Assembly (NCBI GenBank): GCA_025993875.1
Contig: JAMQHH010000014.1
Coordinates: 8,009 to 72,008 of the forward strand
Direction: 5' to 3'
From: Candidatus Dojkabacteria bacterium
GTDB lineage: Bacteria; Patescibacteriota; Dojkabacteria; J137
Length of the DNA: 64,000 bases
The translations under genes and the position numbers were made by a program. Each line of letters begins with the position of its first letter. Within the stretch, counting starts at the first letter, position 1. The notes under the pieces are model-generated. The model saw only the letters and a list, made by a program, of their open reading frames with translations. It was not told the origin of the DNA and made no database searches. Shown piece after piece: positions 26,833 to 64,000 of this stretch.

Positions 26833-27455
26833 ATTCTAAGTTTTACATCTACAGGTTGCTCAAAAAAAAGCCCATTTGGAACAGGGTCGATTTTAAACAG
26901 AGCTTTTATCTCGCCATCGGTAAGAAATGGATAAAGATATATAAGTTCTGCATTGTGAGGCGATTTGTCTAAAGGATTGATCCACTCTGCGGTTTTTGGC
27001 TGAGTAAAGTCAAAATCAATTGTCCAGTTAAATGGTATCGAGGCTTCAATATAATCCGAATCTACAACTATAATATCTAATATCTTGGCATATAAAGTTA
27101 CTGTATCACCTTTGTTAAGACTTATATTAGTAACCTCTCCTTTAGAAGTTGAATATACACTCGAAATAAATGATTCTTCTGTATTAGTTTGTTCGACCCC
27201 AACAATATTATCTCCTACTCTTCCTAAAAGAGTTTCTATTTCTGCAATTTTTTCACCTTTATCTACAAAATCACCATTTGTTACATACATTTCTTTTATC
27301 TGCCCTATCGAAACTGAATTTATAGTGGCTATTTCGGCCTTTAATTTTCCTTTTAGAGTAATTTCTTTTTTATTGCTAAAAACCTTGTTAAATAATAGAT
27401 AACCAAATCCGAAAATTAAAATTACAAACATTACTGTAAAAATTCTTTTACTCAT
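26829..27455 (-). CDS. HlyD-like membrane-fusion/periplasmic adaptor protein (biotin-lipoyl-like barrel)
   Basis: 208 aa. An N-terminal TM segment, then GQIKEMYVTNGDFVDKGEKIAEIE, a lipoyl-like hairpin typical of HlyD/MFP adaptors. Overlaps the GT2 synthase gene by 8 nt. Confidence 0.45.
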   Translation of the reverse strand: MSKRIFTVMFVILIFGFGYLLFNKVFSNKKEITLKGKLKAEIATINSVSIGQIKEMYVTNGDFVDKGEKIAEIETLLGRVGDNIVGVEQTNTEESFISSVYSTSKGEVTNISLNKGDTVTLYAKILDIIVVDSDYIEASIPFNWTIDFDFTQPKTAEWINPLDKSPHNAELIYLYPFLTDGEIKALFKIDPVPNGLFFEQPVDVKLRI

Positions 27456-31280: not shown

Positions 31281-32125
31281 TGTATTAATAGCTGTTTTAG
31301 GTAATGCATTCCCCCCCATAATGCTCCCAAGTCGCCAAGTTCCGACTTTAAAATTACCGGTTTAACAGGTATTCGATTATATATCAAATTGTATTCTTTT
31401 ATCAGTTTTTCAATAACTATTTTATTGCCGTTAACGAGTCCTCCTCCCAATACTAATGCCTCCGGCGACCAACACATTGTTATATTTGCGAGTCCGATTG
31501 CCAAATAATTATGTACTTTCTCCCATACTGCTATATCGGCAATTTCACTTGGTTGTTTATTATATTGAGCTTTTAACGCGCTACCCGAAACAAGATTTTC
31601 CAATGTATAAAGTTTTTTATCTATTATCAGAATTTGATGTCCGGGTTCAAAGCCGGTGTAGTGTGGTTCAATAGCATTGTTTACTATCTTTACCCCACCT
31701 ACTCCCGTACTTATGGTTATATACCCGTTAATTTTATAATTTTTTGCTGCCCCAAAAACCGATTCTCCCAACCCAACCATTGCCGTATCGTTTTCTAAAT
31801 AGCAGCGCACACTGAGAGCTGCTTCTAATTCATTTTTTAGAAACACACCTTCCCATTCTTTTAAATGTGGGGCTTTTAGTAAAAAACTTTTGGAAGGTTC
31901 AAGTGTTCCGTGTACACCTGCAGCGGCTAATTTTAAAGAGGAACCTGCTGAAAAATCTTTTATATATTTTTTTGCAATTGAGATAAAATCTCTAAAATTT
32001 TTTGGGGTTGAAAATATTAAAGGTTCGGTAAAGCTTTTTAGCTCCGAACTTAGTGCAATCCGAGATTTTGTTCCTCCTATATCTGCTAAAAAATACATAT
32101 TTTTAATCTTTATCATGCCTGCCAA
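31277..32125 (-). CDS. ROK-family glucokinase
   Basis: ADIGGTKSRIAL (N-terminal ATP-binding), ENDTAMVGLGE, and ISTGVGGVKIV ROK motifs are present. The true start may be MYFLADIGG at 32098, which removes the 23-nt overlap with zwf-gnd. Confidence 0.7.
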   Translation of the reverse strand: MAGMIKIKNMYFLADIGGTKSRIALSSELKSFTEPLIFSTPKNFRDFISIAKKYIKDFSAGSSLKLAAAGVHGTLEPSKSFLLKAPHLKEWEGVFLKNELEAALSVRCYLENDTAMVGLGESVFGAAKNYKINGYITISTGVGGVKIVNNAIEPHYTGFEPGHQILIIDKKLYTLENLVSGSALKAQYNKQPSEIADIAVWEKVHNYLAIGLANITMCWSPEALVLGGGLVNGNKIVIEKLIKEYNLIYNRIPVKPVILKSELGDLGALWGGMHYLKQLLIQ

Positions 32126-34295
32126 ACATATGCCTTATTGCGGTAACTATTTTCCCGGCAAACCTTGGATTAGATTTAGCAGTTATCCTAAAATTAAGTG
32201 AATCTTCTATAACTTTAACATCTACTCCAAGTTTTTTACCTGTTTCCACTGTCCAGTCGCCCATACCGGTATGGGGTGTAATGTGTGAAATCGTATCGAG
32301 TTTATTAGAATAGATTAAAAATGCCTGCCATAACCATACAATTAATTTCGATTCTATTATGCTTCCTGAGCTATAGTTTCCAGCAACCTCCAAAAGGTCA
32401 ATTTCGGGACTATACGTATTTATAAGTTCAAAACCCTCTGCGATAGACTCCATCATTCCATATTCTATTCCGTTATGAACCATTTTTACAAAATGCCCTT
32501 CTCCCGGGTTTGAAAAAATTGTGTATCCCCCTGTTTCGCAGATGCTTTCGAAAAGGTATTCGACAGATCTCGTAACATCCGGTTTTCCTCCTACCATTAC
32601 TGTAGCTCCATTTCTAGCGCCGGTTGGCCCTCCCGAGGTTCCCATATCAATAAACTCAATTCCTTTCTCTTCTAAAAGCTTAAATCTTCTTAAAGAGTCT
32701 ATGTAGTTCGAGTTTCCTCCATCGATAATAATATCTCCTGTCTCCAAAAAGTTTATTAAACCATTTTCGCTAAAAATCACCTCTTCAATAGGATCCCCTT
32801 CTGGTAAATATAAAAGTATTGTTCTTGGCTTGGACATTGCGCTACATAAATCCTTAATGCTATTAAATCCATTAGCTTTATTTTTTACAAAATCAGCCAT
32901 TTTTTCGGGGGTCCGGTTGTAAACGAATAGGTTCCAGCCCTTATCTAGTAATTGATAAGCTATCCCGCCCCCCATTTTCCCTAAACCAATTATTCCAACA
33001 GTTTTTTTGTGATTCTCTACATTTTTATGTAACAGAGGATAAGAATAATCGTTATAAGTAACGATCCGATTAGGATCTTTTAATTTGTTAAACACAGGTA
33101 ATATTAAGTTCCAGCAAAATTTGGCTTCGGATACGGTTACTAGTTTCGAAAAATCACTCTTCAATATTATTTCGTTAAATGCTTTGCAGTATTCGGTAAG
33201 ATACGATTCTCCTTCTTCGTTCTCTTTTTCTGAAAAATATGAAATCTCTTTATTATTGATATTTGCAATAATATATTCTGAGTTACGATTAAAGGAGATA
33301 AGTAGAAAGTCCCCATTTTTAAAATTAATTTTTATCTCTTTTTCGACTTTAGAAAGCTTTTTACCACCTTCAATTTTGGCTACTACTCCTCTCCATCTGG
33401 GGGATTTTAGTTTAAGTTCCATTTTAAAAAAAGTTTCAGTACAAGATCTTTCCAGACCTTCTATGGTTTTATAAGAACTATACTGGCCAAGTATTAATGA
33501 TTGGTCAATAACCTCAAACGATTTTATTGCCCACTCTCTTTTTTCGGCAAAACTTACGGGGTTATATTTGTCAAATTTATCCATAGTAACTAAGGCTAGC
33601 ATTTCGAGCGCATGATTTTGCCCTACATCAGTTAAGGCGCCTGTTGAATCGTAAAATATACTGCGTTTTTCTATGCCTGATGTTTCGTTAATTTTTATTT
33701 CTATGCTTTTTACATAATTTTTATTTAGCGCAGACTCAAAAAGAGAAATTTCAAATCTAAATTTTAGAAAAGACTCTACGATTTTTTTGTAAAGGTAGTG
33801 ATCTATAATATAAAAATTACTACTCAAGTTATTAGCTTGTATTGATGTAGCAATTTTATTGGCTTCGGCCGGTGAGTTTCCGAATGGTTTTTCAGATAAA
33901 AAGAATAATTCGACAGAAGTTAAGGCCAACCGGTTAATTTTTACAATAATATCGTTGTAGCCTGTTGGCGGTACACTTAGATGGATAAAAGCTTTTTGTA
34001 TACCGTTTTTAAGAATGTATTCTTCAATTTTGGAGTAAAGTTCATCATTATTAAAATCACCACTTATAAAATCGGTATTTTTTTCAAGTGGCGAAATATC
34101 CTCAGAATTAAAAATCTCAGTTTTTAAAAAACTAAGAAACTCGGTTTTCCCGAATTGTTTTCTGGATATCCCAATAATATCTACATTTAGAAATTCGGGA
34201 TTCTTTTTGCACAGTAACTTAATACCAGGGAAAATTTTTCTTTTTGCCAGGTCTCCAGTTGCTCCAAATATAAATAAAGCTGTTTTCTTTTCCAT
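32103..34295 (-). CDS. zwf-gnd: Fused glucose-6-phosphate 1-dehydrogenase / 6-phosphogluconate dehydrogenase (decarboxylating, short form)
   Basis: 730 aa. N-terminal half carries the G6PD motifs GATGDLAKRK, EKPFG, IIDHYLYKK (RIDHYLGK), and DVGQNHALEM. C-terminal about 300 aa carries the 6PGD motifs IIGLGKMGGG, DGGNS, GTSGG, and HFVKMVHNGIEYG. Confidence 0.85.
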   Translation of the reverse strand: MEKKTALFIFGATGDLAKRKIFPGIKLLCKKNPEFLNVDIIGISRKQFGKTEFLSFLKTEIFNSEDISPLEKNTDFISGDFNNDELYSKIEEYILKNGIQKAFIHLSVPPTGYNDIIVKINRLALTSVELFFLSEKPFGNSPAEANKIATSIQANNLSSNFYIIDHYLYKKIVESFLKFRFEISLFESALNKNYVKSIEIKINETSGIEKRSIFYDSTGALTDVGQNHALEMLALVTMDKFDKYNPVSFAEKREWAIKSFEVIDQSLILGQYSSYKTIEGLERSCTETFFKMELKLKSPRWRGVVAKIEGGKKLSKVEKEIKINFKNGDFLLISFNRNSEYIIANINNKEISYFSEKENEEGESYLTEYCKAFNEIILKSDFSKLVTVSEAKFCWNLILPVFNKLKDPNRIVTYNDYSYPLLHKNVENHKKTVGIIGLGKMGGGIAYQLLDKGWNLFVYNRTPEKMADFVKNKANGFNSIKDLCSAMSKPRTILLYLPEGDPIEEVIFSENGLINFLETGDIIIDGGNSNYIDSLRRFKLLEEKGIEFIDMGTSGGPTGARNGATVMVGGKPDVTRSVEYLFESICETGGYTIFSNPGEGHFVKMVHNGIEYGMMESIAEGFELINTYSPEIDLLEVAGNYSSGSIIESKLIVWLWQAFLIYSNKLDTISHITPHTGMGDWTVETGKKLGVDVKVIEDSLNFRITAKSNPRFAGKIVTAIRHMFGRHDKD

Positions 34296-51398: not shown

Positions 51399-51968
51399 AT
51401 GCTTCCAAATCGTGAACAGGCACAAAGCCTTTTAACCCAACATGTAAAAGATAATTACCAAATTACACATTCCAACATGGTAGCTTTGGCAATGGAAGCA
51501 TGGGCCAAAAAGTTAAATCTAGATACTGAACTTTGGTATATAACCGGGCTTTTGCACGATATAGATTATTTTGAATTTCCTGCCGAGCATCCTAACCAAT
51601 CTTTAGCATGGTTTAAAGAGTGGGGATATCCCGAAGAATTGATTTCGGCCGTTTCGGAGCATGCGTTTATGCGAACAGGAGTGGAAGTTAAATCACTTTT
51701 GGGTTCTGCTTTAATTGCCTGCGATGAGCTTTCGGGCTTTATTTATGCGTACTCTCTAATGCGACCGGGTAAATTTGATGGTATGGACGCAACAGGTGTA
51801 AAGAAAAGGCTTAAGGATAAAGCATTTGCTGCAAAGATAGATAGAAGCGATATTGAATTAGGCATTTTTAAATTTGCAGAGCATTTAGGAAAAAATATAG
51901 AGGAGTTTAAAATAGAGCATATAAATTTGTTAATAGAGGTGTTTAAAAATCTTAAGCTGAATATATGA
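51399..51968 (+). CDS. HD-domain phosphohydrolase
   Basis: 189 aa with H...HD motif (HSNMVALAMEAW...GLLHDIDY). Its stop overlaps the start of the next ORF. Confidence 0.65.
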   Translation: MLPNREQAQSLLTQHVKDNYQITHSNMVALAMEAWAKKLNLDTELWYITGLLHDIDYFEFPAEHPNQSLAWFKEWGYPEELISAVSEHAFMRTGVEVKSLLGSALIACDELSGFIYAYSLMRPGKFDGMDATGVKKRLKDKAFAAKIDRSDIELGIFKFAEHLGKNIEEFKIEHINLLIEVFKNLKLNI

Positions 51969-52363
51969 TATTCAAGGAGACAAAGGATTTGCAACCTCAG
52001 CAAACTTTTTTCAGAGCTATGCAGGAAGCTTTTAGTGAATGCGTCGGAAGAAAAAAAAATACATGTTTTGTTAAATACTATATTGACCAAAACCAGGGCA
52101 TTGTATATTTTTTCGCTGAAAATTTTGTTCATAGTGTTTTGCACAGAAAACAAATTATAAGCGAATATTCACCAACACAGGTTCCAGATATAAATTTACA
52201 GGGTAACCTAATAATTACAAAAGATGAAAATGGAGAGTTCCGGCTTTTTGTCCCGGTTTTTCAAGTTAATCATTATTTTACAAGGGTAAACTCAATACTT
52301 TTAAGTAAGCTTGCTAATGGTTTTACCTTCGAGTATTTGCCATATAGGAGGTTGCAAGGCTAA
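51965..52363 (+). CDS. Hypothetical protein
   Basis: 132 aa. Translationally coupled to the HD-domain gene (ATGA overlap). Confidence 0.4.
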   Translation: MIFKETKDLQPQQTFFRAMQEAFSECVGRKKNTCFVKYYIDQNQGIVYFFAENFVHSVLHRKQIISEYSPTQVPDINLQGNLIITKDENGEFRLFVPVFQVNHYFTRVNSILLSKLANGFTFEYLPYRRLQG

Positions 52364-52468: not shown

Positions 52469-52729
52469 CTACTGCTCTAAATTTTCTAAAACATCGACTA
52501 GTCGGTTTAGATTATTTGTAGGGGCATATTCTTTATCCAAAAAATTACAAATTACACTCGTTATTTCTAAAACCTGCTGGTCGGTGAGATTACTAATTTT
52601 TAACTCGTATTGACATAACAAGTTAGCCAGAATATTAATGCATTTTGCAAATTTTTCACTGGCATCTGTTATATCAACTGTTTCTGAAAATATTTTCATT
52701 TCTAAAATTTCGATAAACTCTGAAATCAT
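52469..52729 (-). CDS. Hypothetical small protein
   Basis: 86 aa ORF divergent from the ATPase-wHTH gene. No motif. Confidence 0.3.
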   Translation of the reverse strand: MISEFIEILEMKIFSETVDITDASEKFAKCINILANLLCQYELKISNLTDQQVLEITSVICNFLDKEYAPTNNLNRLVDVLENLEQ

Positions 52730-52843
52730 ATATTTAGTTTAAAAATTCATACAAAATTTTACTGTTATCAATAAATAATATCTTGATCCAACAGGTATAA
52801 ATATAGTACAATTACCTGACAAAAATATAATTCTGATAATATT

Positions 52844-54004
52844 ATGATAATTAATGAAGACATAAATACAGAAAAAATTTTACGATCAATAGTATATGGT
52901 ACTTGTTTAACTGTTTTCGGGGTTTCCGGAATGGGTAAATCAAAGATACTAAGGGATTTACTTGCTAAAAGTGAGATAGCTAATTTTGTATATTTGGATT
53001 TACATTCGTTATTTGCATTAGATGAAAACTCAATAATTGTACAGTTTGCTATTGAATTGCTAAATAACCTGACATTAAAAAAAATAATAAGCGAATCAGA
53101 ATGTAAGAACTTTATTGCAATTTTTCAGGCAAATTTACATTTACAGCTTCATTTGAATACGTTAAACACAATAATTAGCTTGCTGCCCGAAAATACCTTT
53201 TTAATCCTAGACCATTTTGAAAAAGTCTTTAACAACATTGAAAAAATAAATACCGATCTTTTTAAGTACATAAGGGATATAAATAAAGGCAAAATACAAT
53301 ATATCTTTGCAATTGGAGACATAAATACTTTGTTTTTGTTAAATCAAAAAAACTTTGGTTCGCTTACAGATTTAGTAAGCCAGAAGATAATATTCTTAAG
53401 TATCTCTAGTAAAGGAGATGAAAGTAAAATCGCTAATCTCATTAACAAAGGTTATGCTCCAAAAGAAATTGAAAGAGTTTCTGGTAACTTTAATGCTTAT
53501 ACGAAAGTTTTAAATTCTTTTGGGACATTGGAAACCAGTAAGCCACTTTCTAGGGAACTAAAAATAGTCTCGCAAAGGCTGCTAAATTCTTTAGCCTTTG
53601 AACAAATTGAGATTTTAAAAATGATAGCGAAAAAGGAGAAAATAGATACAACTAATAATAATGTAAAAATATTACTGCAGCTTGGTGTTATTGATAAAAA
53701 CTTTAAAATCAGACTTCCTATTTTAGAAATTTATTTAATGGAAGATATTGAAAAAAACGGCTACACAAATGATCAATCGCTTACCAAAAACGAGGATTTA
53801 ATTTACTCCCTTTTACTGAAAAATAAAAATGAAATTGTTTCGAAGGAAGAGATAGCAAAAACTATATGGGGGAACTCGGTTCAAAATAAATATTCTGATT
53901 GGGCAATAGATCAAACTTTAAAGAGGCTAAGAGTAAAATTAAAAAAAATAAATCCTGATATAAGAATCGAAACCAAAAGAGGAAGAGGTTTGGTTTTAAG
54001 GTAG
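52844..54004 (+). CDS. P-loop NTPase fused to a C-terminal OmpR/PhoB-type winged-helix DNA-binding domain
   Basis: 386 aa. Walker A VFGVSGMGKSKIL, a Walker B-like FLILDHFE, and a C-terminal SKEEIAKTIWG...DQTLKRLRVKL...ETKRGRGLVL typical of the Trans_reg_C domain. Confidence 0.55.
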   Translation: MIINEDINTEKILRSIVYGTCLTVFGVSGMGKSKILRDLLAKSEIANFVYLDLHSLFALDENSIIVQFAIELLNNLTLKKIISESECKNFIAIFQANLHLQLHLNTLNTIISLLPENTFLILDHFEKVFNNIEKINTDLFKYIRDINKGKIQYIFAIGDINTLFLLNQKNFGSLTDLVSQKIIFLSISSKGDESKIANLINKGYAPKEIERVSGNFNAYTKVLNSFGTLETSKPLSRELKIVSQRLLNSLAFEQIEILKMIAKKEKIDTTNNNVKILLQLGVIDKNFKIRLPILEIYLMEDIEKNGYTNDQSLTKNEDLIYSLLLKNKNEIVSKEEIAKTIWGNSVQNKYSDWAIDQTLKRLRVKLKKINPDIRIETKRGRGLVLR

Positions 54005-54008
54005 AAAT

Positions 54009-54800
54009 TTACTGCTCCCTTTCCACAATTCGTTGCACAAACAAAATTAGTTCTTTGGTTTGTCCGACTAGAGCGCTTATAACATCACTTGTAGGTAATA
54101 CAGCTAATTCTCTTAAGATCGATGTAAGCTCGGTAATAAGCTTTTTAAATGCTTGTCCGCTCTCTAGAACTTCTAGGTCGCTGTTTTCATCAAAATACCT
54201 AAACATTATATTGGCTTTACTAGCATCTTTTCTTCTAACAAAACTTATAAAAGCAATCAGTTCTGCCTTAACATCCAATGTTAGATTCCCGCATCTCAGT
54301 TGTATTGTTTGGTCTTCCGGTTTATGGTATTTTACTAAAGCAGTTTGAAATTGGTTCGAATAATTGGGCCAGTTTTCAAAATTTATTGTTTCTCTTTCCG
54401 CTAATTTTGGAGCTACATTTTGTTTTCTTTCTAAATATGCTCTTTCTTTTATAATGTTGTAAATTGTTTCTTTAAATAAATTTAAAAGATCTAAAAATTG
54501 CGTAAAACCCAATTTATTTTCCTCTCTAAATGTTTTGATCATGTTATCTAATTGTCCAATTTTGGTTGCTACATCTCGAAGTAGTCTATCTGTAACACTA
54601 TCTGGCTCAGTCTCAAATAGAGCCTTTAATCTTGTGATTAGTGTTAAAAGATCATTAATGTTGTTAGCTAATTTCGGAATATATGCGGAAACCACACTAA
54701 TTTGGTCATCCAGTTTTTTAAAATTATCACCAAGATAGCTTAAAATATTTGCAATTGCTGTAAGGCATTTATCTTTAGTTGTAAGTTTTTCTGTTTCCAT
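54009..54800 (-). CDS. Hypothetical protein, paralog A of a tandem pair
   Basis: 263 aa. Shares with the next gene the blocks WPNYSNQFQTAL / WPDYKQGFKNAL, then I.L..GN.T...ELI.(F/Y)I(S/A)F(V/I)R, and a similar N-terminal helical region. Confidence 0.45.
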   Translation of the reverse strand: METEKLTTKDKCLTAIANILSYLGDNFKKLDDQISVVSAYIPKLANNINDLLTLITRLKALFETEPDSVTDRLLRDVATKIGQLDNMIKTFREENKLGFTQFLDLLNLFKETIYNIIKERAYLERKQNVAPKLAERETINFENWPNYSNQFQTALVKYHKPEDQTIQLRCGNLTLDVKAELIAFISFVRRKDASKANIMFRYFDENSDLEVLESGQAFKKLITELTSILRELAVLPTSDVISALVGQTKELILFVQRIVEREQ

Positions 54801-54845
54801 AATTTTTAATTATAGAACTAACAAATGTATTTTATTCAAAAGCTT

Positions 54846-55661
54846 TTATTGTTCACCCTGTCGCTGTGGTGATAAAAATCTCTTTAACATTATAAGTTCC
54901 TGTGCGAGTGCACTTAATTCGTGGTCGCTTTCGAACATAAACTCAGTTAAACCAATTATTTGATTAATAAGATAGCTGGGATCCTCGTTAGAAATTTTTC
55001 GTTTTAGAGCACGCCAAAACGAGGTATAGTTGCCGTTAGCATATCTTAAAGTAATACCTCTAATAAAAGCAATGTATGTAATCAGTTCAATTGAAGCAGT
55101 AAATGTATTCTTCCCTATTTCGAGTGTTATTGGTGCAGGTTTTTCGCGTTTTATTGTGCTATCAAGTGCATTTTTAAAGCCTTGTTTATAATCCGGCCAT
55201 TTTCTCCAATCGGGTTCGGCCTCATTTTTATTATTAATATTTGTTAAATTTGGAATTGGTTCTGGATGGATAACCTGAAATATCCATAAATATACATTGC
55301 GTAAAATATTCAGAAATTTTGATAAAGAAGGGGGGTAACCCTGGTTTATTTCCGGTGCTACCGTATCCTTTAACATTGATTCGAAATCATCTATTTGCTT
55401 AATAAATTTAAATAGCGCACTTGAAGATAGACTTGCAAAATCCTGTTTTGTAACAGTACTGTGCAAAGCATTGATATTGTTTATTATTGCATTTAAATAT
55501 ATGTTTAGAATTTGGTTATTGGGCTCTATTGTTTTAAATTCACATTCTAATTGAGTTCTTTCACTCTCCAAAAAATCGGTAAAATTCTTGTAAAGTTCCT
55601 GTAATGAACATACATCCTCTTGCGTAGGGGTTGTTAATTCTTTAAGCTGTGTTTTCGGCAC
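54846..55661 (-). CDS. Hypothetical protein, paralog B of a tandem pair
   Basis: 271 aa. Co-linear similarity to 54009..54800 (see above). Confidence 0.45.
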   Translation of the reverse strand: MPKTQLKELTTPTQEDVCSLQELYKNFTDFLESERTQLECEFKTIEPNNQILNIYLNAIINNINALHSTVTKQDFASLSSSALFKFIKQIDDFESMLKDTVAPEINQGYPPSLSKFLNILRNVYLWIFQVIHPEPIPNLTNINNKNEAEPDWRKWPDYKQGFKNALDSTIKREKPAPITLEIGKNTFTASIELITYIAFIRGITLRYANGNYTSFWRALKRKISNEDPSYLINQIIGLTEFMFESDHELSALAQELIMLKRFLSPQRQGEQ

Positions 55662-55720
55662 AAATGCTATAATTAAAGGTTATTATAAACAAGTTACTTA
55701 ATTTTTTCACCTGCTATTAA

Positions 55721-58702
55721 ATGGCAACAGATTATATCAAAATTAGGGGAGCCAGGACAAACAATTTAAAGAATATCGATTTGGATATTCCGAAAGAAGA
55801 ATTAACCGTAATAACAGGGCTATCCGGCTCGGGAAAATCCTCACTTGCATTCGACACACTGTATGCCGAAGGTCAAAGAAGATACGTAGAGTCACTTTCC
55901 TCCTATGCAAGGCAGTTTTTAGGGCTTATGGATAAACCCGATGTTGATTTAATTGAAGGACTCTCCCCTGCTATTTCGATCGATCAAAAAAGTGCGGGCC
56001 ACAATCCTCGCTCTACTGTTGGGACCGTTACCGAAATTTACGACTATCTAAGGCTTTTGTATGCAAGGGTAGGACATCCTAGAAGTACCTTTAACGGAAA
56101 TCTTTTACAAAAGCAAACACCGCAGCAAATTGTCGATTCACTTTTTGATCTTCCAAAGGAGTTTAGTACATCCGAACTCAAAATTATTATTTTGGCTCCA
56201 ATAATAAAAAATCGTAAAGGAACATACGAAGAGCTATTTGCAAGATATTTATCGCAGGGATATGTTAGAGCAAGAGTCGATGGTGAGATTTTTAATTTAG
56301 AAGAGGAAATTAAACTTGAGAAATTTAAAAAACATAATATCGATTTAGTTGTAGACAGGCTTGTTTTAAAGACCGATAAAACAAAAGAACAGCTTAAAAG
56401 AGTTACCGATTCTATTGAGCTCGCACTTAATATGGGTCAGGGAGAGATACTTGTAAATTTTCCGGACTTAAAAGAGACAAAGGATAAGTTTTATTCCGAA
56501 AAATTGGTTGACCCCGAAACAGGAGAATCTTTTTTGGAAGTAGAACCTCATTCATTTTCTTTTAATTCGCCGCATGGAGCGTGCCCAAACTGTAATGGTC
56601 TTGGAACAATTAAAGAGATAGACGAAACAAATATTTATAATCCAAGATTAACAATTTTAGAAGGCGGCATTTACCCATGGGCAAGAGTTATAGAATCTAC
56701 CGACTCTATGACCTATAAAATTTTAGAAATATTTGCCAGAGAAGAAAATATCTCCCTTAAATCGCCAATTAGAGAGCTTCCTAAAAGTGATTTGGAAAAA
56801 GTTTTGTATGGAAATGGTGATAAAAAATATACCTGGGAGTTTTTAGACTCTTACGGACAGCCAAAAAAATGGAGTTCGATCTTTGAAGGTGTAATTCCAA
56901 ACCTGGAAAGAAGATATAAAGAAACAGATTCGGAATACATAAGATCCGAAATTGAGCAGTACATGGTAGAGAAGGTTTGCAATGTTTGCAATGGTTTTAG
57001 ACTTAAAAGAGAATCTCTGGCTGTTACAATAAAAGGTAAAAATATAGCGGATGTTTGCGAGCTTAGTATAAACGAACTTTTTCTTTGGATAAACCAATTG
57101 GATAGTAGTTCGATCAAAATTCCAGACAATAAAACATCTATTTATTTTAAAACTTTTGGATTTATACCGCCTTTAATCGAAAAAGATATTTTATCTAACC
57201 AGGAGCTGACTATTTCCAAACAGATAGTTAAAGAAATCTCTACAAGATTAAATTTTTTGCTTTCCGTGGGGCTAAATTATCTTACATTAAGTAGAACTGC
57301 CAGAACATTATCGGGAGGCGAAGCTCAAAGAATTAGGCTTGCCTCTCAAATAGGAACAGGTTTAACAGGAGTTTTGTATGTACTTGATGAACCGTCAATT
57401 GGGCTGCACCAGCGAGACAACAGCAAATTAATATCAACTCTTTTTAAATTAAAGGAATTAGGAAACACAGTTGTAGTTGTTGAACACGATGAGGATACAA
57501 TAAAAAATGCCGATTACATAGTCGATATAGGTCCCGGAGCCGGCGAACATGGAGGTAACGTTGTTGCTGTTGGTAGTTTGGACGAGGTAAAAAAGTCCAA
57601 AGAGTCTTTAACTGCAAAATATTTAACAGGTAAGCTAAAAATTGATAGAGATGAAATTTATAAGGAGATACAAAAAATAGATTCAATAAAAGCCGGCTCT
57701 ATTAAGAATACGGGGAAAATTGTTTTAAGAGGTGTAAAACATCATAATTTAAAAAATGTTGATTTAGAAGTTCCGCTTGGTAAAATGGTTTGCGTTACAG
57801 GTGTTTCGGGTTCGGGGAAATCGTCTTTAATAAACGAAGTTTTGTACCGGATTTTAAGTAAAGAACTTTACGGTAGCAAGGAAATTCCCGGTGAATATAC
57901 CGAGTTTCGCGGAATTGAAAATATAGATAAGGTAATAGATATTGATCAGTCTCCAATCGGAAGAACTCCTAGGTCTAATCCGGCAACATATACTGGGGTA
58001 TTTAATATTATTCGCGAAATCTTTGCGCAAACAAAAGAATCTAAAGTGCGAGGATATAATGCCGGAAGATTTAGCTTTAACGTAAAGGGTGGACGGTGCG
58101 AAAAATGTCAAGGTGCAGGGGTAAACAGAATTTCAATGCAATTTTTACCGGATGTTTATGTTACATGTGATGAGTGTGAAGGCCATAGATATAACAGGGA
58201 AACACTTCAAATCGATTATAAAGGGAAAAATATTTATGATGTTTTAAATATGACAGTTGAAGAAGGGGTTGAATTTTTTAGTAACATTTCAGCAATAGGA
58301 AACAAGCTAAAAACATTAATGGATGTTGGACTTGGGTATATTAAACTTGGACAGGGTGCTACTACATTATCGGGTGGAGAATCACAGAGAGTAAAACTTG
58401 CTTCTGAACTTGCAAAAAGGCAAACAGGAAAAACATTTTACATTTTAGACGAACCTACCACGGGACTGCATTTTGAAGATGTGCGAAAACTTTTAGTAGT
58501 TCTTCATGGTCTGGTTTTAAAAGGCAATTCTGTTTTAGTAATAGAACATAATTTAGATGTGATAAAAACCGCCGACTGGATAATAGATTTAGGGCCTGAA
58601 GGTGGCGAAAAAGGCGGCTATATTATTGCCGAAGGAACGCCAAAAGATATTTCAGAAAATAAAGATAGCTTTACCGGCGAATGGTTAAAAAAACTACTGT
58701 AG
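55721..58702 (+). CDS. uvrA: Excinuclease ABC subunit A
   Basis: 993 aa. Two ABC modules (GLSGSGKSSLAFDT; GVSGSGKSSLINEV), the signature LSGGEAQRIRLA / LSGGESQRVKLA, and zinc-finger cysteines (CPNCNG, CEKCQG, CDEC). Confidence 0.95.
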   Translation: MATDYIKIRGARTNNLKNIDLDIPKEELTVITGLSGSGKSSLAFDTLYAEGQRRYVESLSSYARQFLGLMDKPDVDLIEGLSPAISIDQKSAGHNPRSTVGTVTEIYDYLRLLYARVGHPRSTFNGNLLQKQTPQQIVDSLFDLPKEFSTSELKIIILAPIIKNRKGTYEELFARYLSQGYVRARVDGEIFNLEEEIKLEKFKKHNIDLVVDRLVLKTDKTKEQLKRVTDSIELALNMGQGEILVNFPDLKETKDKFYSEKLVDPETGESFLEVEPHSFSFNSPHGACPNCNGLGTIKEIDETNIYNPRLTILEGGIYPWARVIESTDSMTYKILEIFAREENISLKSPIRELPKSDLEKVLYGNGDKKYTWEFLDSYGQPKKWSSIFEGVIPNLERRYKETDSEYIRSEIEQYMVEKVCNVCNGFRLKRESLAVTIKGKNIADVCELSINELFLWINQLDSSSIKIPDNKTSIYFKTFGFIPPLIEKDILSNQELTISKQIVKEISTRLNFLLSVGLNYLTLSRTARTLSGGEAQRIRLASQIGTGLTGVLYVLDEPSIGLHQRDNSKLISTLFKLKELGNTVVVVEHDEDTIKNADYIVDIGPGAGEHGGNVVAVGSLDEVKKSKESLTAKYLTGKLKIDRDEIYKEIQKIDSIKAGSIKNTGKIVLRGVKHHNLKNVDLEVPLGKMVCVTGVSGSGKSSLINEVLYRILSKELYGSKEIPGEYTEFRGIENIDKVIDIDQSPIGRTPRSNPATYTGVFNIIREIFAQTKESKVRGYNAGRFSFNVKGGRCEKCQGAGVNRISMQFLPDVYVTCDECEGHRYNRETLQIDYKGKNIYDVLNMTVEEGVEFFSNISAIGNKLKTLMDVGLGYIKLGQGATTLSGGESQRVKLASELAKRQTGKTFYILDEPTTGLHFEDVRKLLVVLHGLVLKGNSVLVIEHNLDVIKTADWIIDLGPEGGEKGGYIIAEGTPKDISENKDSFTGEWLKKLL

Positions 58703-58706
58703 TTTA

Positions 58707-60203
58707 TTATTCTAAAGTATTGATTACCCAATCTAGTAGAATTTGATCAGTTTGATCGGGTTTTGAAATATTCTTAATCATAGCACTCAATAAGAGGTTA
58801 AAATTTTCTTGTGCAAGTTTTAGAATTAGCTCAATAACATCCTGGAATGGGCGCATTTGATCTGGTTTATCTGCCTGCAGATGTGGGGTTTGTGTTGGGA
58901 GTTTCAAAAATGGGTATAGTAGATTATCGTGTTGCTGCAGAGGTGTAAAAAAACCGTGGCAAAACCATACTTTATATTTAACAAAAAGCTGGATAAAAAC
59001 CAGTTTACGGCAAAACATTGTTAGCTTATTTATACTGCGGTTAACAAAGTATAAATCAAATCCCGAACGGCCATTAGCGGATTTTGTTGAGATTGCTTCA
59101 TTAGAGTTAATAACAACCACACTTCCTCCCATGTATGTTTTAAATTCTAAAATATATTCCAGAATTTTAGGGCGAATATTAAGAGAAAAGTTTTGGAGTA
59201 ACAAATCAAATGTATCTCTATAGGTAGTCAGTATAATAAATAATGCTACTCTCGGGCTATGGCTTGGGACTATTTTCCCGTTTTCGTAAACAACAATAAA
59301 TTCCCCTTTCTCTATTTGTTCTAACTTTTCCTCAATTGATTTTCGAAGGTATGCAATTTTGCTTGGCGAGGATTCGTTATCCGGCCAACATGTTTCCTTT
59401 AAAATTGAGCTAATTGTTACCTCTTCGCCATTATCTTGTAACCTAACAAGTGCAATTGCTAAGCTTTTTTCCTCGGGCGAGAGACACTTTAAAAACTCAT
59501 CAAAAGATGAAAGACCTGTCAACACCTCGGCTTGCTGTGAAAGAAGGCTTTGGCGAGGAGGTTTATCGTTGTCATTATTTGAATATCCGGGATTTGTTAA
59601 TGCTTCTATTATTCTAGAGATCAACTTCGAAAATCGCGTATTTTTCCAGCCAGGCAGCTTTTGTATAATTTCTTTGCTCGAGAGCAATTTGTAACCAGAT
59701 TCGGAGGTGAAGTTTTCAAACACAGCTATTAAAGCTTCGCTTTCGTTCTCCTTTAGATCAACAATGCCTAAAATCCTGTCCAAAAACAATCTTAGTGTAG
59801 CTTGCGTTGGCAAAGTTGCACCGCAAAAATCTAAATAAATTTCTACTAAAGTAAACACGTTGCTCCCTTCTTGTTGCGCATGGTAGAGCTCCCGAAATGC
59901 TCTAAAAATCAGTTCCAGCCTTGTTCTGAAAATTTTATATGGCTCATCATAATGTTTAAATAATTTAGTGACATTTTCTAGTCTGGTAAGTGCCAGCTGC
60001 ACTCTGGTTCTAAAATGCTTTGGATCTAGATTTTCACAGGCAGCATAGAAATTAAAATTGACCGGAAAGCCAAACTGTCTAAATAAATCATATGCAATTG
60101 CTAAAATTATTTGATCTTTAATTCCTACTTTCAAAAACGAAGCTTGAATTTGAGGGTCTCTAAAATCCAATTTATTCTCCGGTATATCAATTGTACTATC
60201 CAT
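58707..60203 (-). CDS. Hypothetical protein (498 aa)
   Basis: A long ORF convergent on uvrA with a 4-nt gap. No recognisable motif. Predominantly helical by composition. Confidence 0.4.
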   Translation of the reverse strand: MDSTIDIPENKLDFRDPQIQASFLKVGIKDQIILAIAYDLFRQFGFPVNFNFYAACENLDPKHFRTRVQLALTRLENVTKLFKHYDEPYKIFRTRLELIFRAFRELYHAQQEGSNVFTLVEIYLDFCGATLPTQATLRLFLDRILGIVDLKENESEALIAVFENFTSESGYKLLSSKEIIQKLPGWKNTRFSKLISRIIEALTNPGYSNNDNDKPPRQSLLSQQAEVLTGLSSFDEFLKCLSPEEKSLAIALVRLQDNGEEVTISSILKETCWPDNESSPSKIAYLRKSIEEKLEQIEKGEFIVVYENGKIVPSHSPRVALFIILTTYRDTFDLLLQNFSLNIRPKILEYILEFKTYMGGSVVVINSNEAISTKSANGRSGFDLYFVNRSINKLTMFCRKLVFIQLFVKYKVWFCHGFFTPLQQHDNLLYPFLKLPTQTPHLQADKPDQMRPFQDVIELILKLAQENFNLLLSAMIKNISKPDQTDQILLDWVINTLE

Positions 60204-60248
60204 CCTTGTATCCTAAAATAGACGCAGGATGTTACCATTTAGTTTGAC

Positions 60249-62144
60249 TTAAGCCAAGCCCATTTTCTGTTTAGCATAGTCCGTTAAGTTTTCTCTTTTA
60301 GACCAGTCTCGCTCTGTTTTCGTTAAATACTGTTTTCTAAGTCTAAGGTTTTTGGGCGTTACTTCTAATATTTCGTCTTTTGCTAAAAAAAGTAAAGCAT
60401 ACTCCAATGTTAAATTTTTTACAGCCTTTAGTATTGTCTGTGTAATTTCATCGTGTTTTATTCTAACGCCACTTTTGTGTCTTTCCTTGCATGGGTTAAC
60501 TTCCAAATCATTTTCATATTTATGGATTCCTATAATCATTCCTTCGTAAACCTCGGCCCCCGGTTCTATAAAAAGTTCTCCTCTTTCCTGAATTGTATTT
60601 AAAGCGTAACCCATAGCCGTCCCTGTTTCGGAAGAGATTAAAACTCCTTTTCTAAAGAGTTCTTCCTGCTCAGTATAAGCTACATATCCTAAAAGGAAAT
60701 TGTTGACAACAGCATTACCTTTGGTAGCAGTTAATAATTGATTTCTTAAGCCTAAAAGATTGCGGGTTAAGATGTTGTAAGTAAAAACAACCTGATTATT
60801 TTCCAAACTCATATCTTTTAGTTCGGCTTTTCTTTCGTTTACAAGCATAGAAACAACACCCTGGTATTCCTCGGGAACATCTATAATCAACTCTTCCAAC
60901 GGCTCTTTTTTTATTCCATCTTCTTCTATAAAAATTACTTCGGGCTTTCTAACCTGAAACTCGTAACCCTCCCTTCTCATTGTTTCAATTAAGATTGAAA
61001 GCTGGAGCTCTCCCCTTCCTGCAACGTAATATGCTCCCCCGTCGGTCTTGTCTATTACTAAACTTATGTTGTTTTCGGCTTCTTTATCTAACCGTTGTTG
61101 TAAAAGTTTGGCCGTAACAAATTTACCTTCTTTCCCGACAAGTGGTGATGTGTTTGCTTCAAATTTTATTTTTACTGACGGGTTAGAAATTTTAATAACG
61201 GGAAGGGCTTCAATATTGGATGGTGAACAAAGTGTTCCCCCAATAGCTTTAGAATCTATTCCCGCAACTGCTACTATTTCGCCAGCTTTGGCGCTTTCTA
61301 CTTCTTTATAGGTTAAACCTTCCCATAAATATAGCTTTTTAATTACACCCGAGTCTTTTGCAGCTCCTATTTCGGGAGAATGCACAACAACTGCAGAACT
61401 CCCTGTGGAAATTTTACCGCGAACTACTTTTCCTACTAAAAGCCTCCCTAAATGAGGATTAAAATCTAAAGAAGAAATTTGCATTTGCAATGATTTATCA
61501 GAATCAAATTTAGGCTCGGGGATATGTTTTATTATCCCTTCCAAAAGTGGCTTTATATTTCCCAGAGTCGAGTTCGGAATTGTTAAATCACCTTCGGGAA
61601 GTTTTTCGAAAGCCTTTCCCTCTCTTCCTATTGCATAGTAAACAGGAAATTCAAGCTGGTTATCTTCTGTTGCTAGATGTAAAAATAAATCACTTACTTT
61701 TTCGAGCGCTTTTTTGGGATTTGCAAATTTTTTATCAATTTTATTGATTACAACTATAACTTTTAGGCCAAGTTCCAAAGCTTTTCTCAAAACAAACTTT
61801 GTTTGAGGCATTGTTCCTTCCTGGGCATCTACTAAAAGCAGGCAGCCTTCGGCCATATTTAACGTTCTTTCAACTTCTCCTCCAAAATCGGCATGCCCTG
61901 GTGTATCTATTATATTTATTTTGTATTCGTTTCCGTCTTGTGCTGTGTATTTTACCGAGATATTCTTAGCTCTTATTGTAATACCTTTTTCCCGCTCCAG
62001 TTCGTCAGAGTCTAAAATCATTTCTTGCTTAAATTCTTCCTGATTTTCTCTAAATACATTTGTCTGTTTTAAAAAGGCATCGACAAGTGTAGTTTTCCCA
62101 TGGTCTACATGGGCGATTATTGCTATGTTTCTTAAATTTTCCAT
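60249..62144 (-). CDS. typA: Translational GTPase TypA/BipA
   Basis: 631 aa. The G-domain NIAIIAHVDHGKTTLVD...DTPGHADFGGEVER...NKID and the EF-G-like domain architecture with a BipA C-terminus. Confidence 0.9.
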   Translation of the reverse strand: MENLRNIAIIAHVDHGKTTLVDAFLKQTNVFRENQEEFKQEMILDSDELEREKGITIRAKNISVKYTAQDGNEYKINIIDTPGHADFGGEVERTLNMAEGCLLLVDAQEGTMPQTKFVLRKALELGLKVIVVINKIDKKFANPKKALEKVSDLFLHLATEDNQLEFPVYYAIGREGKAFEKLPEGDLTIPNSTLGNIKPLLEGIIKHIPEPKFDSDKSLQMQISSLDFNPHLGRLLVGKVVRGKISTGSSAVVVHSPEIGAAKDSGVIKKLYLWEGLTYKEVESAKAGEIVAVAGIDSKAIGGTLCSPSNIEALPVIKISNPSVKIKFEANTSPLVGKEGKFVTAKLLQQRLDKEAENNISLVIDKTDGGAYYVAGRGELQLSILIETMRREGYEFQVRKPEVIFIEEDGIKKEPLEELIIDVPEEYQGVVSMLVNERKAELKDMSLENNQVVFTYNILTRNLLGLRNQLLTATKGNAVVNNFLLGYVAYTEQEELFRKGVLISSETGTAMGYALNTIQERGELFIEPGAEVYEGMIIGIHKYENDLEVNPCKERHKSGVRIKHDEITQTILKAVKNLTLEYALLFLAKDEILEVTPKNLRLRKQYLTKTERDWSKRENLTDYAKQKMGLA

Positions 62145-62153
62145 AGTTTAAAA

Positions 62154-63389
62154 CTAATATCTACCGGAATATCTATGTCCCGCAAAGCCTTCCACAAATG
62201 TTAAAGCTTTTCCTTTTTTATTTGCTCTTCCCGTTCTTCCAATTCGGTGTACGTAATCCTCGTATGTTGCCGGCATATCATAATTAATAACATGCGATAC
62301 TTCCGGGATATCTAATCCTCGAGCTGCAATATCTGTAGCAATTAAAACCTTGCTTACATTATTTTTAAAGTTGTATATCGACCTTTGCCTAATACTTTGG
62401 GGCTTATCACCATGAATAGTCGAAACCTTTACTCCTCTTTTTATTAAATCTCTTTCAAGCCTATCTACACCACTTTTGGTCTTTACAAAAATTAAAACTT
62501 TCGAAAATTCTGCTGTGTTTAACAACTCAGTTAGTTTATCGAGTTTTTCTACAATACTTTGAACCTTAATTACATCCTGGCTTACACTCTTTGCAGTCTC
62601 GCGCGCTTTTACCGAGATGACCTTGTGTTCTCCCAAAAACTCGTTGATTAAACCCTTAACTTCGGAATTAATTGTTGCCGAAAAAAATAGTGTTTGCTTT
62701 TCTTTCGGCATTTTGCCGACAATATATTTTATATCGTCAATAAAACCCATATCCAGCATTCTATCCACTTCGTCCAAGACAAGATACGAAGCGTTATCGA
62801 GTCTTAGTGTTTTTCTAAAAAGAAGATCTTTAATTCTTCCGGGTGTTCCTATAATAAATTGGTGTGGTTTTGTTAAAAAGTGTATCTGTGTTCTAATATT
62901 TGCTCCACCAATGCATAGTACAGAGAAAAGCCCTGTGCCTTTACCAAAACTCTTAAATTCCTCGTTAATTTGTAATGCAAGTTCGCGAGTTGGACAAATT
63001 ACAACTACCTTTTTACTTCGATTTTGCAAAACTTTTTCCAAAAGCGGTATAGCAAATGCTGCGGTTTTCCCTGTTCCTGTATTGGCCAGACCTAAAACAT
63101 TATGTCCCGAAAGAATTTCGGGAATTGCAGCATCCTGAATAGGAGTTGGTTCGCTATATCCTTTTCCCATAACATTCTCCTTTATCCTGCTTGAAACATT
63201 AAAATCGCTAAAAAGATGTTTTGGAGTAAATACTTCTTGTTTTTCCTCCTCTTGCGGCTCATTATTTATTAGTCTAGAAATATCCAACCCTTTTGATTTT
63301 CGTCTAGAAAATCTGTTGCTGGACCTTCTAAATGGAGGTCTGCTGTATCTTCCACTAAACCTGGAATTTGACGGTCTACTAGAAACCAT
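62154..63389 (-). CDS. DEAD-box ATP-dependent RNA helicase
   Basis: The motifs Q, I (ANTGTGKTAAF), Ia (PTRELA), Ib (TPGR), II (DEVD), III (SAT), and VI (HRIGRTGR) are present. An Arg/Ser-rich N-terminal tail. Confidence 0.85.
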   Translation of the reverse strand: MVSSRPSNSRFSGRYSRPPFRRSSNRFSRRKSKGLDISRLINNEPQEEEKQEVFTPKHLFSDFNVSSRIKENVMGKGYSEPTPIQDAAIPEILSGHNVLGLANTGTGKTAAFAIPLLEKVLQNRSKKVVVICPTRELALQINEEFKSFGKGTGLFSVLCIGGANIRTQIHFLTKPHQFIIGTPGRIKDLLFRKTLRLDNASYLVLDEVDRMLDMGFIDDIKYIVGKMPKEKQTLFFSATINSEVKGLINEFLGEHKVISVKARETAKSVSQDVIKVQSIVEKLDKLTELLNTAEFSKVLIFVKTKSGVDRLERDLIKRGVKVSTIHGDKPQSIRQRSIYNFKNNVSKVLIATDIAARGLDIPEVSHVINYDMPATYEDYVHRIGRTGRANKKGKALTFVEGFAGHRYSGRY

Positions 63390-63539
63390 AAGTTTGTTAT
63401 AATAATTACAATGGTTGAAATCTAGAAGTTTTATTTTTACTTCCGGAGTTCAAATACTCCAGAAATAACGCCTTTAACCAAAGGATTCTGGAGACTGAAC
63501 ATTGTAGCATAAAAAGTTTATTTTTTCAAATTCAATGAA

Positions 63540-64000
63540 ATGCTAGAGTCGCAAATTACCGGCAGGCAACTGGTTTTATTAATGCTTATGAGCATGCTTC
63601 CGGATAATAGTGGCTTTGAAAATCGTACAACAGATACATCTAACATTGAGTTTTTAGATACAAGTCGAAAAGCAAAAAGTATATTTGATGACGGTTTTTC
63701 GGGAAGATATAATCAAATAGATTTGGCAGTCGAATTTGATAACCCAGGTAAAAGTATAGAGTTTCCTGCTCTATCAGAAAACATATCGCAAAGAAATATG
63801 GCAGTGCAGTCTATGAGTATTTTGTGGAGAGTCATAGAATTGCGGGATAAACATGTTATAGATAATAAAGCAGACTTCGTAAGAGCTGCAGTAGATAAAT
63901 TTAACTATGAGCTTTCGTTACTATATAGCACTCAAAAATGGAATCGGTTGTTTACTAATATCTTTACCGAGGATGGAATTCCTATTCTTAAATTTGAAAA
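63540..64000 (+). CDS. Partial CDS (5' end) of a hypothetical protein, open to the window edge
   Basis: ATG at 63540 gives MLESQITGRQLVLLMLMSMLPDNSGFENRTT... with no stop before position 64000. Confidence 0.35.
   Translation, partial: MLESQITGRQLVLLMLMSMLPDNSGFENRTTDTSNIEFLDTSRKAKSIFDDGFSGRYNQIDLAVEFDNPGKSIEFPALSENISQRNMAVQSMSILWRVIELRDKHVIDNKADFVRAAVDKFNYELSLLYSTQKWNRLFTNIFTEDGIPILKFE

Follow-up and report, generated by a model that had tools for sequence, protein, structure and literature searches.

The 64-kb stretch of a Candidatus Dojkabacteria contig that was analysed (JAMQHH010000014.1; hereafter the window) represented ordinary chromosome of a small and AT-rich bacterium, with genes for aminoacyl-tRNA synthetases, a Mur ligase, D-Ala-D-Ala ligase, PGK, UvrA, BipA and similar proteins. 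It contained a small islet of four open reading frames (ORFs), which comprised a putative transcriptional regulator, two paralogous proteins and one short divergent ORF. The analysis was concerned with the regulator, its probable binding site and its relation to the other islet genes. According to the ORF list, the regulator of 386 amino acids (aa) was encoded on the forward strand at 52844-54004. Paralog A (263 aa, 54009-54800) and paralog B (271 aa, GTG start, 54846-55661) followed on the reverse strand. The 86-aa ORF, an acidic protein with a pI of 4.2, was located at 52469-52729 on the reverse strand and diverged from the regulator gene. On one side the islet adjoined a 132-aa ORF that overlaps an HD gene, and on the other uvrA. 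An earlier reading of the stretch from its letters alone (the sequence-only reading) had placed the four ORFs at these positions, with the 86-aa ORF diverging upstream of the regulator and the unit lying between an HD gene pair and uvrA, and all of this was confirmed. Identical or near-identical regions were present on at least 24 public metagenome contigs, in which the same genes were called.

Paralogs B and A are probably co-transcribed across their 45-nt gap. Paralog B and uvrA were separated by a divergent promoter region of 59 nt (55662-55720) with promoter-like sites on both strands, which was partially conserved in the sister species (locus L007) and in a third strain (L096). The stop codons of the regulator and paralog A were convergent and 4 nt apart. 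The sequence-only reading had drawn attention to this convergence within 5 nt. The distance was right but unremarkable, since about 8 of 14 convergent gene pairs in the window were at most 10 nt apart or overlapping, uvrA and a 498-aa gene also being separated by 4 nt. The tight junction is therefore typical of a compact genome. The G+C content was about 27-33% in the islet region versus about 34% for the genome. The 86-aa ORF was called as a gene in all contigs of the same species. In the sister species, two small ORFs of 74 and 89 aa, unrelated to it, were found at this position, and whether it is a true gene is uncertain. Only two tRNAs were found in an Rfam scan of the window, both far from the islet, and scans of the intergenic regions for generic repeats, promoters and terminators yielded nothing above chance.

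The C-terminal part of the regulator, residues 312-382 (53777-53989, forward strand), was identified as an OmpR/PhoB-type winged helix by Pfam, by a profile search against PDB sequences and by structural comparison with Foldseek. The Pfam family PF00486 (Trans_reg_C) matched with an E-value of 2.3e-11 and 44.1 bits, compared to a gathering score of 26.2. NCBIfam matched only the effector-domain part of response regulators, and the effector domains of ArlR, CovR and WalR reached E = 4e-10 in the PDB profile search. In the N-terminal part, a Walker A motif, GVSGMGKS, was read from the sequence at residues 26-33 (52919-52942, forward strand). The family alignment placed a Walker B-like strand, FLILDHFE, at residues 119-126 (53198-53221, forward strand). 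With these motifs and the Trans_reg_C score, the claim that a 386-aa protein combines a Walker A/B nucleoside triphosphatase (NTPase) with a C-terminal OmpR/PhoB domain was upheld. Pfam matches to AAA_22, AAA_16 and nSTAND6 at residues 20-148 were all below threshold. Signals of STAND type were weak, with 18.1 bits versus a required 27.7 for nSTAND6 and E = 0.08 for nSTAND1, and the ATPase_2 family (PF01637) was not matched in Pfam. In the PDB profile search the only NTPase-type match of the N-terminal ATPase region was a weak one to 2qen; the ABC transporter 3c41 also appeared with E = 0.96.

The structure of the regulator was modelled with AlphaFold2 from an alignment of 21 sequences. Searched against the PDB with Foldseek, the model was most similar to the Walker-type ATPase 2qen of Pyrococcus (E = 1.2e-6). 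It was followed by ORC4 (6e-6), with entries of ORC4, Orc1 and Cdc6 ranging from 6e-6 to 2e-3, and by the Sulfolobus AAA+ protein 2fna (2e-4). A match to MalT (8bob_C) was weak with E = 2.3e-3. The C-terminus aligned with the DNA-binding domains of ArlR, CssR, CovR and PhoB, with template modelling scores of 0.59-0.67 on the target and root-mean-square deviations of 2.0-2.7 Å. The predicted local distance difference test (pLDDT) was mostly 82-91 in this winged helix, one block of 10 residues being at 66. An internal, helical, winged-helix-like domain at about residues 237-305 (53552-53758, forward strand) was indicated by the secondary structure of the model (pLDDT 71-90) and by the full-length Foldseek alignments to 2qen and ORC/Cdc6. 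As modelled, the regulator consists of an AAA+ core, a lid, the internal winged helix, a linker and the OmpR-type winged helix.

Three known classes of regulators were considered, and the protein did not fit any of them. A Response_reg receiver domain was not matched in the regulator, whose N-terminus is a P-loop NTPase, and neither the genes called in the 10 kb to each side nor those in the rest of the window contained a histidine kinase domain. Lacking a receiver domain and a partner kinase, the protein is not a two-component response regulator. It resembles OmpR/PhoB response regulators such as PhoB, ArlR and WalR in its C-terminal Trans_reg_C winged helix and differs from them in having neither receiver nor phospho-acceptor. 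Since the AAA+ module replaces the receiver, the presumed input is the nucleotide state and not phosphorylation. Classification as a SARP regulator was rejected because BTAD, the signature domain of that class, gave no match and the domain order is opposite. In SARP/AfsR proteins the OmpR winged helix and BTAD come first and NB-ARC and TPR follow; the type of DNA-binding domain is shared with the regulator, the order is reversed. The sequence-only reading had described the arrangement as the reverse of both classical response regulators and SARP regulators. This was correct for SARP/AfsR, but not for classical response regulators, which also end in the winged helix. The unusual feature of the regulator is the P-loop NTPase in place of the receiver domain.

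With the STAND regulators MalT/LAL and SARP/AfsR, the regulator shares the logic of a nucleotide-driven oligomerisation module joined to a DNA-binding domain. MalT/LAL proteins carry the ATPase first and a LuxR helix-turn-helix last, so that the order is common to both and the type of DNA-binding domain is not. Sensor repeats of the TPR, SUPR and WD40 families were not found after the NTPase; the winged helix is the last domain, the chain ending at residue 386. Without sensor repeats it was excluded as a classical STAND protein, from which it also differs in its length of only 386 aa and in lacking BTAD. The best whole-chain structures belonged to ATPase_2 (PF01637)/DUF234 ATPases (2qen, 2fna) and ORC/Cdc6, which share the order of AAA+ core, lid and winged helix. 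Unlike in those proteins, no Pfam model of these families matched, an OmpR-type domain is appended, identity is 12-16% and a histidine stands in Walker B.

A word-indexed protein search with the regulator returned 24 relatives, including strain variants of the window protein. Its closest relatives beyond these were the syntenic orthologue P0005 with 48% identity and P0006 with 47%, which shared only 40% with each other. Relatives of about 433 aa showed 22-27% identity over nearly the full length and were, where named, an "OmpR/PhoB-type protein" of Levybacteria. With each GTDB species represented by a single genome, a scan identified 79 family loci. The named loci were affiliated with Levyi-, Woese-, Curtiss-, Roizman-, Blackburn-, Ames-, Shapiro- and Dojkabacteria or with unspecified Patescibacteria. 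The family is uncharacterised and spread across Microgenomates. Trans_reg_C was matched in all 21 aligned family members. No relatives of the regulator clade were detected among JGI metagenome contigs and in IMG/VR.

The NTPase part varied within the family. Walker A (GxxGxGKS) was intact in the window protein, P0005 and P0006. In the Levybacteria-type proteins it read GMKRVGIS in about 45 of 50 members, the lysine being replaced by isoleucine, with the Walker B aspartate nearly invariant. In the Walker B-like segment LILDH of the window protein, this aspartate is D123 and a histidine occupies the usual second acidic position. Judged by these motifs, the family extends from ATPases that appear competent to degenerate forms, and most members are without the Walker A lysine. 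The Levybacteria-type relatives of about 433 aa (L013-L016 and about 50 of the loci L017-L095) were well conserved despite the lost lysine. Their gene context was annotated in four loci only, L013-L016. There the regulator directly followed a DUF4012 gene of about 880 aa, with an 84-aa ORF between them in L013 and L014, and preceded the gene for leucyl-tRNA synthetase (LeuRS) where the contig extended that far. These members look like a pseudo-ATPase branch in a stable chromosomal context.

Other regulator subfamilies had other neighbours, often proteins of no known family. One branch, in L022 (4625-10818), L023 (3281-6051) and L064 (7122-10479), was paired with a recurrent family of proteins of 500-750 aa. 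These partners showed no convincing Pfam match (MarR_2/GntR below threshold in L064) and were unrelated to the paralogs of the window. In L022 the unit of regulator and partner was duplicated in tandem. GTDB records entitled "uncultured Gammaproteobacteria bacterium" (L018, L020, L027 and many more) contained regulators 50-54% identical to the Levybacteria protein P0011, with the GMKRVGIS motif. To judge from this similarity, the titles of those records are probably wrong.

A candidate binding site was derived from the upstream regions of the family. The motif originated from a conserved CTGACA in three aligned upstream regions of the clade, and pairs of CTGACA 11 nt apart were then noticed in GTDB loci. 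The exact repeat CTGACA-N5-CTGACA occurred 7 times in 1.13 Mb, compared to an expectation of about 0.1. Close to a family gene there were 6 of these copies, with 0.02 expected. With up to two mismatches, 39 copies were found in the 25 kb around the ends of the family genes in the 79 loci, versus 2.24 expected from the remainder of these loci (P = 2e-34). They fell in 29 loci, mostly on the gene strand and just upstream of the start. Among 180 hexamer permutations CTGACA ranked first with 17 near-gene copies, the runner-up having 7. Of the spacings between 6 and 25 nt only 11 was enriched, with 18 copies against 0-3 elsewhere. Domains of the OmpR/PhoB type bind direct repeats about one helical turn apart, and the Pho-box repeat is CTGTCA, which CTGACA resembles. 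CTGACA-N5-CTGACA is thus likely to be the operator of the family, as far as such enrichment can tell.

In the window, a predicted operator, CTGATAatattATGATA, was located at 52833-52849 on the forward strand. It is a direct repeat with 11-bp phase and overlaps the start codon of the regulator gene. The pattern MTGAYA-N5-MTGAYA had this single match in 64 kb, with 0.08 expected. The same unique placement at the start codon recurred in L007 (ATGATAaatatATGATA) and in L011 (CTGACAtttaaATGACA), one of the two loci of P0006. Upstream of it, a candidate sigma-70-type promoter of the regulator, TTGATC-18 nt-TACAAT, was predicted at 52783-52812 on the forward strand, with 9 of 12 positions agreeing with the consensus. 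In the alignment of the three upstream regions of the clade, both hexamers, including the predicted -10 element TACAAT at 52807-52812, coincided with conserved columns. A second, weak pair in 11-bp phase, AGTACA-N5-CTGACA (52805-52821, forward strand), had three mismatches to CTGACA-N5-CTGACA and lay over the predicted -10 element and start site. Its CTGACA copy was conserved in the upstream regions of L007 and L012, the other locus of P0006. Scans with MTGAYA and CTGACA detected no operator-like repeat near the paralogs, the 86-aa ORF or uvrA, nor in the 55662-55720 region. As the sole match in the window overlaps the start codon of the regulator, the gene is probably autoregulated; the position of the sites at and downstream of the promoter suggests negative autoregulation. 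As in OmpR/PhoB regulators, the predicted site would be a direct repeat in 11-bp phase on the protein's own promoter.

The exact repeat was also present downstream of the regulator and ahead of the next gene in L017 (4909-4925), L051 (8234-8250), L062 (8322-8338) and L063 (8251-8267). In L063 this next gene encodes a putative carbonic anhydrase. The downstream neighbours in these four loci may be direct targets of the regulator, judging from the position of the repeat.

Taken together, the regulator was interpreted as an autoregulated, nucleotide-switched transcription factor that shares a variable islet with lineage-specific genes by happenstance, to which a probability of about 0.6 was assigned. 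An ORC/Cdc6- or ATPase_2-like AAA+ module would occupy the place that the receiver has in OmpR/PhoB regulators, ahead of the OmpR-type winged helix. Binding or hydrolysis of ATP would control the self-association of the protein. Self-association would in turn set at least two C-terminal winged helices head-to-tail on the CTGACA-like repeats, 11 bp apart. With these repeats covering its own -10 element and start site as well as the start codon, the regulator would most likely repress its own transcription.

Several observations weigh against this interpretation. The sites of the window are themselves weak versions of the motif, with three mismatches each, and the MTGAYA pattern was written after the three sequences had been seen. 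The second hexamer overlaps Met-Ile or Met-Thr codons, so that coding constraint may explain part of the conservation. Because CTGACA resembles the -35 element TTGACA, some of the copies upstream of family genes could be promoter elements; TTGACA itself was less enriched, with 6 near-gene copies versus 17 for CTGACA. The NTPase part stayed under the Pfam gathering scores (19.6 versus 27 bits for AAA_22 and 17.5 versus 32.6 bits for AAA_16). The model of the regulator was moderately confident, with a pLDDT of 70, a predicted template modelling score of 0.42 and a pLDDT below 50 in the Walker A loop. The histidine in Walker B instead of an acidic residue makes ATP hydrolysis uncertain. Finally, the rapid evolution common to the regulator and the paralogs, and their continued adjacency in the sister species, mean that a functional tie between them is conceivable.

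The structural matches would also be compatible with a protein that is not a transcription factor but an ORC/Cdc6-like ATPase in DNA transactions, such as an initiator, a loader or a partition-type protein, in which the OmpR-type domain would only find the DNA site. After 2qen, the best structures were ORC4, Orc1 and Cdc6, which combine AAA+ and winged helix and bind origin DNA, and one homologue adjoins genes for single-stranded DNA-binding protein (SSB) and conjugation-type proteins. However, most family members are conserved without the Walker A lysine, as would be more easily understood for a regulator than for a motor or loader. The repeats are found at the 5' ends of the family genes themselves, like autoregulatory operators, and neither an iteron cluster nor an AT-rich unwinding element was found. 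Such a role was considered very unlikely.

The two paralogs shared 26% identity over 188 aa (E = 3e-9) and the blocks W(P/D)xY..F..A(L/M) and (E/D)L(I/L)..(I/V)(S/A)F(I/L/V)R, which bore out the earlier claim that the two genes of about 265 aa are paralogous with shared blocks. Including the orthologues of the sister species, the block read W/F-x-x-Y..F..A(L/M)...(I/V)xLxxxxxx(F/L)xxxx(E/D)L(I/L)..(I/V)(S/A)F(I/L/V)R, followed after 6-7 residues by AN. Neither the paralogs nor the 86-aa ORF gave a significant match in Pfam, NCBIfam, PADLOC, PHROGs or the PDB sequences, in line with the earlier statement that the three proteins have no recognisable family. When 1.84 billion representative proteins were searched exhaustively with HMMER, five matches to the paralogs were obtained, all of them fragments or orthologues from the same lineage. 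A word-indexed search with paralog A returned nothing, not even its own 90% cluster, which is represented by a 132-aa fragment; an empty result of this type can hide the cluster of the query itself. A profile of four paralogs retrieved paralog B only, and the paralog alignment was too variable for a scan of metagenome contigs.

Both proteins were predicted to be soluble and mildly acidic, without a hydrophobic segment. The product of the 86-aa ORF was likewise regarded as soluble, fast-evolving and confined to the lineage. The AlphaFold2 model of paralog A (pLDDT 70, five sequences) comprised a four-helix bundle (residues 2-127), which was followed by a small alpha/beta domain (residues 165-262). 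The latter had the order beta-beta-alpha-alpha-beta-alpha-alpha, with a pLDDT of 52-83 from the five-sequence alignment. Compared to the PDB and BFVD, the model showed no significant structural match; generic four-helix bundles such as copper storage proteins and Avd appeared with E of at least 0.03. A BTB/POZ domain was considered for the C-terminal domain on account of the motif ITLEIGKNTFTASIELITYIAFIRG and of BTB matches in Foldseek with probabilities of 0.1-0.2. It was rejected, since hhalign gave at most 1% and Pfam no BTB; the BTB/Skp1/T1 reference sequences had been verified by Pfam. The BTB likeness of the modelled domain was kept as a topological resemblance only, and no fold family was assigned. 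The paralogs were likewise judged unrelated to the 498-aa ORF and to a 440-aa ORF beside P0006, the hhalign probability being about 1%. The structure prediction and the check for a toxin-like fold, both proposed with the sequence-only reading, thus led to no known family and to no toxin-like fold in the PDB and BFVD. Membership of the paralogs in a housekeeping family, which would have spoken against that reading, did not emerge from any library.

The islet differed from its flanks in the rate of evolution. Amino acid identity to the sister species L007 was 89% for the HD protein, 73% for the 132-aa ORF, 92% for UvrA and 65% for the 498-aa ORF. It amounted to 48% for the regulator, 35% for paralog A and 26% for paralog B, the fastest-evolving gene of the islet. 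The 86-aa ORF had no similarity to the two small ORFs at its place. At four-fold degenerate sites in identical amino acids, a fraction of 0.32-0.50 differed in the flanks and of 0.61-0.84 in the islet genes. Pooled, 60 of 88 such sites differed in the islet and 244 of 537 in the flanks (Fisher P = 8e-5). This deeper silent divergence indicates that the islet alleles are older than the flanks, as expected from the exchange of whole alleles by recombination. Between strain L096 and L007, UvrA was 97.8% identical and paralog B only 67%. Nucleotide identity was 89-98% across uvrA and the intergenic region and up to about 430 nt into paralog B, and then fell to 78, 69, 71 and 48%. A recombination breakpoint is located inside paralog B. 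The ratio of nonsynonymous to synonymous substitution rates (dN/dS) between these strains was 0.55 for the whole of paralog B and 0.044 for uvrA. The first 150 codons of paralog B, which were nearly clonal, contained 28 nonsynonymous and 3 synonymous changes. This is suggestive, but positive selection on the N-terminus was rejected because the excess was not significantly above neutral (P = 0.10).

The G+C content at third codon positions (GC3) of the islet was normal for the genome, so that nothing points to a recent import from a donor of different composition. Composition gave no support for a foreign origin; the low G+C content of the regulator gene (z = -2.0) is explained by its amino acid content. 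The islet is a variable region, swapped by recombination, between conserved housekeeping genes. It resembles replacement-type flexible genomic islets in its conserved flanks, divergent interior, deeper silent divergence and sharp in-gene breakpoint between close strains. Unlike the usual flexible islets with glycosyltransferase, restriction-modification or defence genes, it holds a regulator and proteins of no known relatives, and three alleles are known. Elsewhere in the window, the Logan contig of SRR23459708 (L005) was identical to positions 52544-60596 and 63135-64000. In the 2.5-kb patch between them (60597-63134), which covers the genes for BipA and a DEAD-box helicase, it carried 289 substitutions, a divergence of about 11%. 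The patch has the appearance of a tract acquired from a diverged relative by homologous recombination, or is possibly due to a strain-chimeric assembly.

P0006 lay on short contigs between unrelated ORFs and a cluster of genes for TraC-like, VirB4-type and SSB proteins. In L011 (1615-5089) and L012 (3364-4309), genes for a TraC-like protein, a 167-aa protein, a VirB4/TraG-type ATPase and SSB were found downstream of the regulator homologue on the same strand. The cluster is conjugation-like or type IV secretion-like and belongs to a related candidate-phyla organism, in which the P0006 regulator may control it. The position of P0006 directly upstream of these genes raised the question of whether the islet is a decayed conjugative or integrative element, in which the regulator would have served as transcription factor and the other three ORFs would be leftover cargo. 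P0006 and the syntenic P0005 are equally close to the window protein, silent sites have diverged more deeply in the islet than in the flanks and recombination is active in the population, all of which would fit such an origin. Yet the islet is without an integrase, a relaxase, a secretion gene, flanking repeats or a tRNA, and secretion or conjugation genes like those beside P0006 were absent from the whole window. The normal GC3 and the occurrence at the same site in two species also argue against it, as do the lack of IMG/VR relatives of the clade and the stable chromosomal contexts of the wider family. A decayed element was accordingly held to be quite improbable.

The fast-evolving, recombining islet is one point that favours a conflict-type role. 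The four genes could constitute a module for defence against phages or mobile elements, or for interaction between episymbiont and host. The paralogs would act in trans as sensors or adaptors that switch the sensor-less STAND/AAA+ regulator and thereby alter transcription. The divergence of the islet far beyond that of its flanks, the high dN/dS and the nonsynonymous changes of paralog B, the silent divergence and the allele breakpoint are consistent with this. The weak nSTAND/AAA_16 matches, the structural match to MalT and the arrangement kept in the sister species point in the same direction. On the other hand, the nonsynonymous excess was not significant, and no effector enzyme, sensor repeats or toxin-like fold were found. 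Searches of the islet proteins against PADLOC-DB v2 gave no significant or full-length match, the best being mad8 (E = 0.0019, 15.8 bits, P-loop only), PbeC (0.0029) and HEC-01B (0.023), and PHROGs gave no significant match. The promoter of the paralogs was without an operator-like site. A conflict module was considered rather unlikely.

A search for the same arrangement in other genomes had been proposed with the sequence-only reading, and its outcome was divided. The whole arrangement was kept in the sister species L007, as was every neighbouring gene. Because this synteny covers the entire neighbourhood, it is uninformative on the coupling of regulator and paralogs. P0006, an equally close homologue, had no paralogs alongside. 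They were also absent beside all distant regulator homologues, of which those of Levybacteria type lie between DUF4012 and LeuRS genes. The suggestion of a regulatory or stress/defence-type module hence held in its regulatory part, given the fusion of NTPase and OmpR-type domain and the predicted operator at the gene's own 5' end. The module and defence parts were not supported, given the solitary P0006 and the lack of significant matches in PADLOC and PHROGs. Functional linkage of the regulator and the paralogs is unproven; the defence reading of the islet is without direct support, and the module idea is a possibility. A more specific version is a split sensor/regulator cassette. Here the two paralogs, each predicted to combine a four-helix bundle and a BTB-like alpha/beta domain, would control a sensor-less AAA+/STAND-like switch in trans and relay a signal from phage, mobile element or host contact to transcription. 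This design was considered unlikely; a limited literature search gave no description of it for STAND or OmpR-type systems.

Other genes of the window were noted alongside the islet. The 132-aa ORF (51965-52363, forward strand) overlapped the stop of the HD gene by 4 nt. Its sole match was a weak one to the PADLOC model DrmC (E = 2.8e-4, 18.7 bits), and Pfam returned nothing. The 498-aa protein (58707-60203, reverse strand), which converges on uvrA, had no family match in any library searched, and in L007 the two genes overlapped by 9 nt. A gene at 32103-34295 on the reverse strand encoded a 730-aa product with G6PD_N/C and NAD_binding_2/6PGD domains. It appears to be a fusion of glucose-6-phosphate dehydrogenase and 6-phosphogluconate dehydrogenase, two enzymes of the pentose phosphate pathway. 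A run of cell-surface and glycan genes at 21913-29010 (reverse strand) comprised a 959-aa protein with a faint End_tail_spike match, a GH81-family glucanase, a 208-aa protein of no known function and a family-2 glycosyltransferase of the cellulose-synthase type.

To our knowledge, the genomes of Patescibacteria encode few recognisable transcription factors, and no member of the regulator family has been studied. In the literature searched, coverage of which was incomplete, neither the ATPase-OmpR architecture nor such transcription factors in Patescibacteria were described. An ORC/Cdc6-like ATPase ahead of an OmpR-type domain would represent a different control of a very common DNA-binding module. 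The Microgenomates family offers a natural series from an active ATP switch to a pseudo-ATPase, and with the predicted CTGACA operator the regulon can be computed for hundreds of uncultured genomes. The paralogs mark a hypervariable spot in an otherwise conserved, tiny genome, and it is in such places that genes for strain-level interactions with host or phage are expected.

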